Origin: Eledone cirrhosa | Lineage: Eukaryota | Length of the DNA: 64,000 nucleotides | Assembly: GCA_964016885.1 (NCBI GenBank) | Contig: OZ024766.1 | Location: 21,390,001 to 21,454,000, forward strand | Direction: 5' to 3' | Part shown: positions 29,860 to 34,225 of the stretch, piece by piece | Position numbering within the stretch: the stretch's first letter is position 1 | Layout of the letters: each line of letters opens with the position of its first letter | The notes under the pieces: model-generated | Database searches by the model: none | Told to the model about the DNA's origin: nothing | What the model saw: only the letters and a program-made list of their open reading frames with translations | Made by a program: the position numbers and the translations under genes

Positions 29860-32800
29860 ATATATACACCTCTCTCTCTACAGCGTCCATCACCAGATAT
29901 CAAAGCTATGCTGTATAAACTATATATACACCATCTATCTATATATACACTATATATACACCTCTCTCTCTACAGCGTCCATCACCAGACATCAAAGCTA
30001 TGCTGTATAAACTCTATATACACCATCTATCTATATATACACTATATATACACACCTCTCTCTACAGCGTCCATCACCAGACATCAAAGCTATGCTGTAT
30101 AAACTCTATATACACCATCTATCTATATATACACTATATATATACACCATCTATCTAAATATATACACTATATATACACTATATATACACCATCTATCTA
30201 TATATACACTATATATACACACCTCTCTCTACAGCGTCCATCACCAGACATCAAAGCTATGCTGTATAAACTATATATACACTATATATACACCCCTCTC
30301 TCTACAGCGTCCATCACCAGACATCAAAGCTATGCTGTATAAACTCTATATACACCATCTAACTATATATACACTATATATACACCTCTCTCTCTACAGC
30401 GTCCATCACCAGACATCAAAGCTATGCTGTATAAACTCTATATAAACTATATATACACCTCTCTCTCTACAGCGTCCATCACCAGATATCAAAGCTATGC
30501 TGTATAAACTATATATACACCATCTATCTATATATACACTATATATAAACTATATATACACCATCTATCTATATATACACTATATATACACCTCTCTCTA
30601 CAGCGTCCATCACCAGACATCAAAGCTATGCTGTATAAACTCTATATACACCATCTAACTATATATACACTATATACACACCTCTCTCTCTACAGCGTCC
30701 ATCACCAGACATCAAAGCTATGCTGTATAAACTCTATATACACCATCTAACTATATATACACACCTCTCTCTACAGCGTCCATCACCAGACATCAAAGCT
30801 ATGCTGTATAAACTCTATATACACTCTATATACACCATCTATCTATATATACACTATATATACACCTCTCTACAGCGTCCATCACCAGACATCAAAGCTA
30901 TGCTGTATAAACTATATATACACCATCTATCTATATATACACTATATATACACACCTCTCTCTACAGCGTCCATCACCAGACATCAAAGCTATGCTGTAT
31001 AAACTCTATATACACCATCTAACTATATATACACTATATATACACCTCTCTCTCTACAGCGTCCATCACCAGACATCAAAGCTATGCTGTATAAACTCTA
31101 TATAAACTATATATACACCTCTCTCTCTACAGCGTCCATCACCAGATATCAAAGCTATGCTGTATAAACTATATATACACCATCTATCTATATATACACT
31201 ATATATAAACTATATATACACCATCTATCTATATATACACTATATATACACCTCTCTCTACAGCGTCCATCACCAGACATCAAAGCTATGCTGTATAAAC
31301 TCTATATACACCATCTAACTATATATACACTATATACACACCTCTCTCTCTACAGCGTCCATCACCAGACATCAAAGCTATGCTGTATAAACTCTATATA
31401 CACCATCTAACTATATATACACACCTCTCTCTACAGCGTCCATCACCAGACATCAAAGCTATGCTGTATAAACTCTATATACACTCTATATACACCATCT
31501 ATCTATATATACACTATATATACACCTCTCTACAGCGTCCATCACCAGACATCAAAGCTATGCTGTATAAACTATATATACACCATCTATCTATATATAC
31601 ACTATATATACACACCTCTCTCTACAGCGTCCATCACCAGACATCAAAGCTATGCTGTATAAACTATATATACACCATCTAACTATATATACACTATATA
31701 TATACACCTCTCTCTACAGCGTCCATCACCAGACATCAAAGCTATGCTGTATAAACTCTATATACACCATCTAACTATATATACACTATATACACACCTC
31801 TCTCTACAGCGTCCATCACCAGACATCAAAGCTATGCTGTATAAACTCTATATACACCATCTAACTATATATACACTATATACACACCTCTCTCTCTACA
31901 GCGTCCATCACCAGACATCAAAGCTATGCTGTATAAACTCTATATACACCATCTAACTATATATACACACCTCTCTCTACAGCGTCCATCACCAGACATC
32001 AAAGCTATGCTGTATAAACTCTATATACACTCTATATACACTATATATACACCTCTCTACAGCGTCCATCACCAGACATCAAAGCTATGCTGTATAAACT
32101 ATATATACACCATCTATCTATATATACACTATATATACACACCTCTCTCTACAGCGTCCATCACCAGACATCAAAGCTATGCTGTATAAACTATATATAC
32201 ACCATCTAACTATATATACACTATATATATACACCTCTCTCTACAGCGTCCATCACCAGACATCAAAGCTATGCTGTATAAACTCTATATACACTATATA
32301 TACACCTCTCTCTACAGCGTCCATCACCAGACATCAAAGCTATGCTGTATAAACTCTATATACACTATATACACACCTCTCTCTACAGCGTCCATCACCA
32401 GACATCAAAGCTATGCTGTATAAACTCTATATACACCATCTATCTATATATACACTATATACACCTCTCTCTACAGCGTCCATCACCAGACATCAAAGCT
32501 ATGCTGTATAAACTCTATATACACCATCTATCTATATATACACTATATACACCTCTCTCTACAGCGTCCATCACCAGACATCAAAGCTATGCTGTATAAA
32601 CTCTATATACACCATCTATCTATATATACACTATATATACACACCTCTCTCTACAGCGTCCATCACCAGACATCAAAGCTATGCTGTATAAACTCTATAT
32701 ACACCATCTAACTATATACACCTCTCTCTACAGCGTCCATCACCAGACATCAAAGCTATGCTGTATAAACTCTATATACACCATCTAACTATACACACCT

Positions 32801-34225
32801 CTCTCTACAGCGTCCATCACCAGACATCAAAGCTATGCTGTATAAACTCTATATACACCATCTATCTATATATAAACTCTATATACACTATATACACACA
32901 CCTCTCTCTACAGCGTCCATCACCAGACATCAAAGCTATGCTGTATAAACTCTATATACACCATCTAACTATATATACACTATATATATACACACCTCTC
33001 TCTACAGCGTCCATCACCAGACATCAAAGCTATGCTGTATAAACTATATATACACCATCTATCTATATATAAACTCTATATACACACCTCTCTCTACAGC
33101 GTCCATCACCAGACATCAAAGCTATGCTGTATAAACTCTATATACACTATATACACATCTCTCTCTCTACAGCGTCCATCACCAGACATCAAGCCTATGC
33201 TGTATAAACTCTATATACACTATATATACACCCCTCTCTCTACAGCGTCCATCACCAGACATCAAAGCTATGCTGTATAAACTCTATATACACTATATAC
33301 ACACCTCTCTCTACAGCGTCCATCACCAGACATCAAAGCTATGCTGTATAAACTCTATATACACTATATACACACCTCTCTCTACAGCGTCCATCACCAG
33401 ACATCAAAGCTATGCTGTATAAACTCTATATACACTATATACACACCTCTCTCTACAGCGTCCATCACCAGACATCAAGCCTATGCTATATAAACTATAT
33501 ATACACTATATATACATCTCTCTCTCTACAGCGTCCATCACCAGACATCAAGCCTATGCTATATAAACTATATATACACTATATACACACCTCTCTCTAC
33601 AGCGTCCATCACCAGACATCAAAGCTATGCTGTATAAACTATATATACACCATCTATCTATATATAAACTATATATACATCTCTCTCTCTACAGCGTCCA
33701 TCACCAGACATCAAAGCTATGCTGTATAAACTCTATATACACCTCTCTCTCTACAGCATCCATCACCAGACATCAAAGCTATGCTGTATAAACTCTATAT
33801 ACACTATATATACACACCTCTCTACAGCGTCCATCACCAGACATCAAGCCTATGCTATATAAACTATATATACACTATATATACACACCTCTCTCTCTAC
33901 AGCGTCCATCACCAGACATCAAAGCTATGCTGTATAAACTCTATATACACTATATACACACCTCTCTCTACAGCGTCCATCACCAGACATCAAAGCTATG
34001 CTGTATAAACTCTATATACACTATATACACACCTCTCTCTACAGCGTCCATCACCAGACATCAAAGCTATGCTGTATAAACTCTATATACACTATATATA
34101 CACACCTCTCTACAGCGTCCATCACCAGACATCAAAGCTATGCTGTATAAACTCTATATACACTATATACACACCTCTCTCTACAGCGTCCATCACCAGA
34201 CATCAAAGCTATGCTGTATAAACTC
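29860..34225 (+). repeat. Tandem array (about 51 copies) of an XPO6 acceptor plus exon 5' end
   Basis: CTCTCTCTACAG|CGTCCATCACCAGACATCAAAGCTATGCTGTATAAACT separated by TA/CA spacers. Confidence 0.97.

Follow-up and report, generated by a model that had tools for sequence, protein, structure and literature searches.

A junction-spanning minisatellite with fifty decoy acceptors in the XPO6 gene of Eledone cirrhosa, probably a neutral by-product of local duplication

The XPO6 locus and its duplicated splice junctions

The window, which is the whole 64,000-nt stretch of Eledone cirrhosa DNA analyzed here, lies at 21.39-21.45 Mb of the 22.36-Mb contig C27 and carries a gene that matches exportin-6 (Table 1). 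Searches by tblastn with an exportin-6-like protein of Octopus sinensis (P0001) and a second homolog (P0002), combined with boundary mapping, gave 23 coding exons with a 3765-nt coding sequence and no internal stop, among them exons of 231, 233 and 790 nt. The predicted product is identical to P0001 at 907 of 991 aligned residues and to P0002 at 949 of 1151, and the 53 residues of exon 20 are 94% and 85% identical to the two homologs, respectively; a Pfam search with exon 20 alone gave no match. Colinear similarity and the IBN_N and Xpo1 domains that Pfam finds in P0002 identify the gene as exportin-6, in agreement with the name given to the gene in a sequence-only reading of the same DNA. The 790-nt exon 6 (1467-2256, forward strand) encodes a long low-complexity insertion of Gly, Ala, His and Asn that differs among the Eledone gene, P0001 and P0002, and tandem repeats of 43-48 bp (39138-40366, forward strand) start just past the stop codon at 39114, likely in the 3'UTR.

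Table 1. Features of the XPO6 locus, in window coordinates; a slash marks the splice site.
Feature	Position	Strand	Details
XPO6 exons 6-23 of 23	1467..39114	+	Exons 1-5 upstream of the window
Second mirage, exon-7 tail and donor repeated downstream	4783..5456	+	Exon 7 at 4702-4828
XPO6 exon 19	28785..28896	+	112 nt; donor CAG/GTAAGA at 28897; tblastn with P0001/P0002; 3' end equals left loose end of X3 contig
Mirage minisatellite, 50 decoy units	29831..34186	+	Unit of C/T tract, CAG, 38-40 nt of exon head and TATATACAC-type spacer; ends with the real tract and AG
Exact 660-bp higher-order duplication	30295..31665	+	7 units; limits of the periodicity
Span of 14 decoys with CTAAC 23-40 nt upstream	30400..33008	+	First exon bases, first to last such copy
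Three nearest decoys (33974, 34045, 34116)	33974..34186	+	Would form exons of 372, 301 and 230 nt, each carrying a premature stop
XPO6 exon 20	34187..34345	+	159 nt, 53 aa, phase 0/0; donor CAG/GTCAGT; spanned whole by spliced X3 contig
XPO6 exon 21	36015..36113	+	Start equals right loose end of X3 contig

The boundary between intron 19 and exon 20 is present many times over. A search with CAG and the first 39 exon bases recovered 51 copies of the pyrimidine tract, CAG and exon-20 head, which occupy most of the 5290-nt intron and consist of 50 decoys, whose first exon bases run from 29884 to 34116, and the real acceptor copy at 34187. The sequence-only reading, whose copy coordinates are also first exon bases (each AG ends one base earlier), had counted about 51 tandem copies between the donor at 28896 and the exon and held that only the last of them runs into the exon. 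Both the count and the donor position agree with ours, and the last point is confirmed by copy 51, the only one to enter exon 20, beyond which lie the exon's 119 unique bases and, at 34345, its donor.

The CAG follows a C/T tract of 7-11 nt in all 51 copies, and the exon head is exact over its first 40 nt in 34 decoys, over its first 38 nt in eight, and altered by one to four substitutions in the remaining eight. Unit length varies because of the variable spacer, such that the decoys are spaced by 62-167 nt (most commonly 92 nt, 15 times, and 71 nt, 11 times) and only 7 of the 50 unit lengths are divisible by three. The 50 units comprise 31 distinct sequences, and the types form a gradient from 5' to 3'. 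A chance origin is excluded, because 50 matches of 38-40 nt adjoin their own source exon. In the 3.0-Gb genome G000 exon 20 occurs once, and a search that sets a lower bound found 51 matches to the junction unit, all of them inside this array; a dispersed element as the source of the unit was therefore rejected. The duplication that had been placed at 30301-30960 and 30961-31620 is exact, with no mismatches over 660 bp, which bears out the suggestion of a recent expansion.

Could the array, in whole or for the greater part, have been created during assembly? The absence of mismatches in the 660-bp duplication might be taken as a sign of this, and none of the contigs compared spans the array. 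Seven sequencing runs are listed, none of them recorded as RNA, which has no bearing on expression, and the contigs of four runs (X1 to X4) were compared with positions 34100-34376; the other three (X5 to X7) are RAD-seq runs. Contigs bearing the unit reach depths of 201, 41 and 126 in X1, X2 and X4, against 6.6 for one contig of unique flank in X1, although depth does not equal copy number. The contigs of X1, X2 and X4, which represent one sample, possibly that of the assembly itself, show several spacer variants, including the form with CTAAC, and leave 34230-34339 uncovered, a gap that carries no weight either way. These depths and variants fit a real multi-copy array, and an artefact would also have to account for the 31 distinct unit sequences and their ordered gradient, which makes an assembly error very improbable.

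The junction of exon 20 is not the only one in the gene to have been duplicated. Downstream of exon 7, the tail and donor of the exon recur as three intact decoy donors, after 4964, 5100 and 5244, each of which leads to a stop, and as a further decayed copy near 5387, in which GT has changed to AT. Duplicated boundaries thus number 2 of 44 in XPO6, one at a donor and one at an acceptor, and in both the exon-proximal site is the authentic one.

Splicing to the last acceptor

Evidence for the acceptor in use comes from X3, a sample separate from that of X1, X2 and X4, and we infer that it is RNA from the spliced form of one of its contigs. This contig (record 18, 2669 nt, depth 14.7) aligns with 34184-34346, and its loose ends correspond to the last bases of exon 19 on the left and the first bases of exon 21 on the right. 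The splice connects 28896 with 34187, the last copy, and as one contig from one run it shows the presence of this form, while rare forms would be invisible. The contig's length fits a fully spliced mRNA reaching from within exon 6 as far as about 39300, the point at which the 3'UTR repeat begins. A retrocopy is an unlikely source, given the single occurrence of exon 20 in the genome. Exon 19 followed by decoy spacer was found in none of the X3 contigs on 34100-34376, where rare isoforms would be dropped and the products of decoys hidden by nonsense-mediated decay (NMD). The only other X3 match (record 17, depth 788), which covers 34 nt with three differences and has unlike loose ends, was dropped as an unrelated simple-repeat match.

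The decoys share their tract and AG with the real site, and local acceptor strength can therefore not separate them. As the earlier reading had observed, a CTAAC motif lies upstream of many decoys and is missing from the real copy: 14 of the 50 decoys have it 23-40 nt ahead of the exon start, the closest of them 1179 nt from the real site. The real acceptor also has no yUnAy motif 15-55 nt upstream, whereas 16 of 22 XPO6 acceptors have one. Structural masking of the decoys was rejected on the basis of predicted folds, according to which the real AG region (unpaired 0.65) is no more open than those of the decoys (0.75 +/- 0.07).

The array does lack usable donors. With a scoring matrix built from XPO6 itself, the best donor-like site within it scores -1.7, as compared to 3.4-7.2 for the 22 true donors in a leave-one-out test, and every decoy must therefore pair with the donor at 34345. 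The would-be exons are those listed in Table 1 for the three nearest decoys, more than 400 nt long for the others and more than 1.3 kb long for the copies with CTAAC. A ladder of micro-exons or a tandem exon duplication was also rejected, since the unit has no donor (-1.7 against at least 3.4) and so few unit lengths are multiples of three.

Exon definition together with proximity is the likely mechanism by which the decoys are silenced. The acceptor would be committed across the exon, where U1 bound to the donor and enhancers in the exon body, within its 119 unique bases, would favor the nearest upstream tract and AG. Decoys 1 to 47 would require exons of more than 400 nt, and the three nearest would lose on proximity. 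Size alone does not exclude decoy 50, because XPO6 has exons of 231, 233 and 790 nt and the 230 nt required here fall within this range; the preference for the real site over this decoy would rest on proximity. The array had been put forward as a natural test of exon definition versus first-AG scanning. The use of the last AG in one contig is what exon definition or proximity predicts. First-AG scanning begins at the committed branch point and not at the donor, so that what the array tests is the choice of the tract or branch point for commitment, not a scan down the intron.

In the frame of exon 20, 49 of the 50 decoys reach a stop before 34345, while copy 50 (34116) causes a frameshift and a stop 31 nt into exon 21. 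The three nearest decoys had been described as yielding frameshifts or stops, and all three do stop, at least 299 nt ahead of the last junction, but the one at 33974 is in frame (213 nt) and nevertheless stops at 34148; the one at 34045 stops at 34219. A premature stop located well upstream of the last junction turns an mRNA into a substrate for NMD. Rare decoy products, with their stops far ahead of the last junction, would be removed in this manner, and the array would then be cheap and tolerated.

A more active role was suggested in the sequence-only reading, in the form of an NMD control tunable by copy number, in which leakage to the nearest decoys would feed NMD and the share of such transcripts would rise with the number of copies. 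That all 50 decoys give premature stops would agree with such a control, as would the better branch-point motif in 14 of them, and for the human ABCA7 gene a one-unit decoy product has been described that increases when NMD is blocked with cycloheximide (PMC5954066). However, any TA-rich spacer that varies in length would be expected to produce stops, no decoy-spliced contig was seen in X3, where rare forms would not be visible, and if proximity decides, the nearest one to three copies compete and distant additions should change little. In the same account of ABCA7, decoy donors are used at about 2%, independently of array length (PMC5954066), and the pseudo-sites in human F7 are reported to be silent (PMC1557585). 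We consider the control unsupported and its existence quite unlikely.

A second way for the array to act would be through exon 20 as a whole, which is in phase 0/0, and skipping it thus preserves the frame and gives a product without a stop in which 53 amino acids are lost. By sequestering U2AF or branch-point factors, or by slowing exon definition, the array might cause such skipping in a length-dependent manner, similar to exon 19 of ABCA7, the exon after the VNTR, which is skipped more often as the VNTR lengthens (PMC5954066). The missing consensus branch point at the real acceptor is compatible with this scenario. On the other hand, exons 19, 20 and 21 follow one another in the X3 contig, although a skip junction would fall outside the compared stretch of 34100-34376, and the exon is well conserved in both homologs. 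Our confidence in length-dependent skipping is just as low as in the NMD control, and if the array acts at all, the in-frame loss of exon 20, by analogy with ABCA7, is as plausible as tuning through NMD. The array would matter more only if splicing changed with its length.

Mirage minisatellites and their human parallels

Tandem repeats of a splice junction are known as mirages, and the original report, on Adh3 in amphioxus, is said to be that of Canestro in 2002. Mirage minisatellites have been described in the amphioxus genes for Adh3, troponin C, the globins BflGb6 and BflGb9, and PGBD5 (PMC3087553; PMC3902484). In these descriptions, as in XPO6, the 3' end of an intron together with an exon's 5' part (BflGb6) or the 3' boundary of an exon (BflGb9) are repeated in tandem in the adjoining intron, the splice signals are kept, the mRNA is normal and turnover resembles that of minisatellites. 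The BflGb6 array, as portrayed there, has 3-6 units, whereas the XPO6 array resides in a cephalopod mollusc and has 51 units, a spacer that varies and a higher-order repeat of 660 bp.

Judged by four of five features, the XPO6 array is a mirage minisatellite. Its unit reaches across an intron-exon boundary of XPO6; 50 copies are arranged head-to-tail in the adjoining intron 19, with the authentic boundary as the terminal copy; units of 62-167 nt, with 31 types among 50 and an exact 7-unit duplication, show tandem turnover; and a regular mRNA is produced from the authentic site, the presence of which is documented by one spliced X3 contig. The fifth feature would be length instability between haplotypes or somatic cells. 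A report of a cephalopod mirage was not found in the literature searched, which mostly excluded subscription journals, and the XPO6 array extends mirages to the cephalopods and links them with a chromosome end saturated with minisatellites.

Three human loci offer parallels, insofar as their published accounts were available to us. The CBS variant c.844_845ins68 duplicates the junction between intron 7 and exon 8 and, with one extra copy as opposed to 50 in XPO6, the downstream copy is strongly favored and yields normal mRNA (PMC2630376), just as the downstream copy wins here. In intron 7 of F7, a 37-bp VNTR (IVS7) contains 5-9 identical donors; splicing uses only the first, while the others are functional but silent pseudo-sites, and the authors explain this by oriented scanning, to which exon definition contributes in part (PMC1557585). 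This junction-spanning minisatellite, too, is spliced at its exon-proximal site and it corresponds to the exon-7 donor array of XPO6; it differs from the exon-20 array by being on the donor side and having 5-9 copies. The 25-bp VNTR in intron 18 of ABCA7 has a splice signal in each unit (PMC5954066), and as in XPO6 the use of the next copy would lead to a frameshift and an NMD substrate, and the flanking exon can be left out without a shift of frame; unlike the exon-20 array it is located on the donor side, and length-dependent exon skipping has been measured.

Fifty near-identical acceptors at graded distances from one donor, together with a donor array in the same gene, provide a natural substrate for measuring the contributions of cross-exon pairing and proximity to the choice of 3' splice site. 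Junction arrays can also mislead gene annotation and read mapping.

Minisatellite abundance at the end of C27

The minisatellite of the intron-19/exon-20 junction is probably a neutral by-product of local duplication, and we think it is ignored by the splicing machinery since the last copy alone makes an ordinary exon when paired with the downstream donor. Slippage or unequal crossover in the TA/CA-rich end of the intron may first have copied the junction, and ordinary minisatellite turnover, which would be very active at this end of C27, may then have expanded the array to 51 units. In the 664 kb of C27 that surround the window, 68% of the sequence is tandem repeat and 51% minisatellite, as compared to 9% and 4% around 74 family-hit exons elsewhere. 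By our own count, XPO6 has about 9 arrays of local derivation, 2 of which cross an exon boundary, and a rough estimate for random seeding outside exon interiors is 10-29%. The observed share lies within this range, which suggests that junction arrays arise where minisatellite birth is frequent and that no favoring selection is needed.

Further junction-spanning repeats, for which a genome-wide scan had been proposed, were found near XPO6 and not elsewhere, where a detector of edge duplications that finds both XPO6 arrays as its positive control returned none at 94 family-hit exons (0 of 74 in one set and 0 of 20 in another), with the caveat that long or intronless hits make up many of the 74 and that the core tested in them may not include their true edges. 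The guanylate-cyclase gene downstream of XPO6 was likewise without such copies at 20 exons. Within the 664 kb, where one de novo exon finder recovered 1 and another up to 6 of 16 held-out exons, a site-first screen gave 156 raw rows, mostly false, and eight loci were inspected by eye; the regional count is therefore a lower bound and not a rate.

One such case is a GGA-like exon with an adaptin-ear match (PF02883) at C27 21646557-21646720 on the reverse strand (L144:2557-2720), for which a homolog search returned nothing. It has three extra copies of the acceptor and exon head upstream, at 21647380, 21647109 and 21646945, and one copy of the exon tail and donor 487 nt downstream. Another stretch on the same strand (C27 21650211-21650430, L144:6211-6430), likely a second exon of this GGA-like gene, has an 83-nt exon tail and donor copied 183 nt downstream. 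Among forward-strand candidates, the putative exon at L154:5758-5884 has a duplicated donor with one copy 66 nt downstream, and the one at L119:5483-6300 has about a dozen copies of G/GTGAGATG in a GTG-rich array. Three candidate exons other than the GGA-like one, the likely second exon among them, gave no match in Pfam searches.

A broader reading would combine these cases with the array itself, which would act as a length-variable rheostat of the actin exporter XPO6, long alleles leading to exon-20 skipping or to NMD-bound products of the nearest decoys, while minisatellite-saturated octopus chromosome ends would tune neighboring genes through many junction arrays. We regard this as improbable and favor the neutral by-product.

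A few minisatellite families of the window recur at about 18-90 other places within the 664 kb, for example those with units of 49 bp (2445-4433, 24329-26789 and 59690-62236), 72 bp (8866-10977 and 19630-21777) and 79 bp (29038-29676). The 49-bp arrays are located within a common dispersed element, which resembles an octopus SINE. Near the starts of chromosomes, minisatellite cover is bimodal, with 65-100% in 6 of 17 samples and less than 10% in 7 of 17 (bases 1,000,001-1,010,000 of C11-C28; L099-L115). Finally, the 5' end of the receptor guanylate cyclase gene lies at about 51800-57270 of the window (forward strand) as a 5.4-kb open frame with coding repeats of 96, 93 and 120 bp; its homolog P0003 is named guanylate cyclase 32E-like, and P0003 and P0004 are unlike each other in their repeat-rich N-termini.
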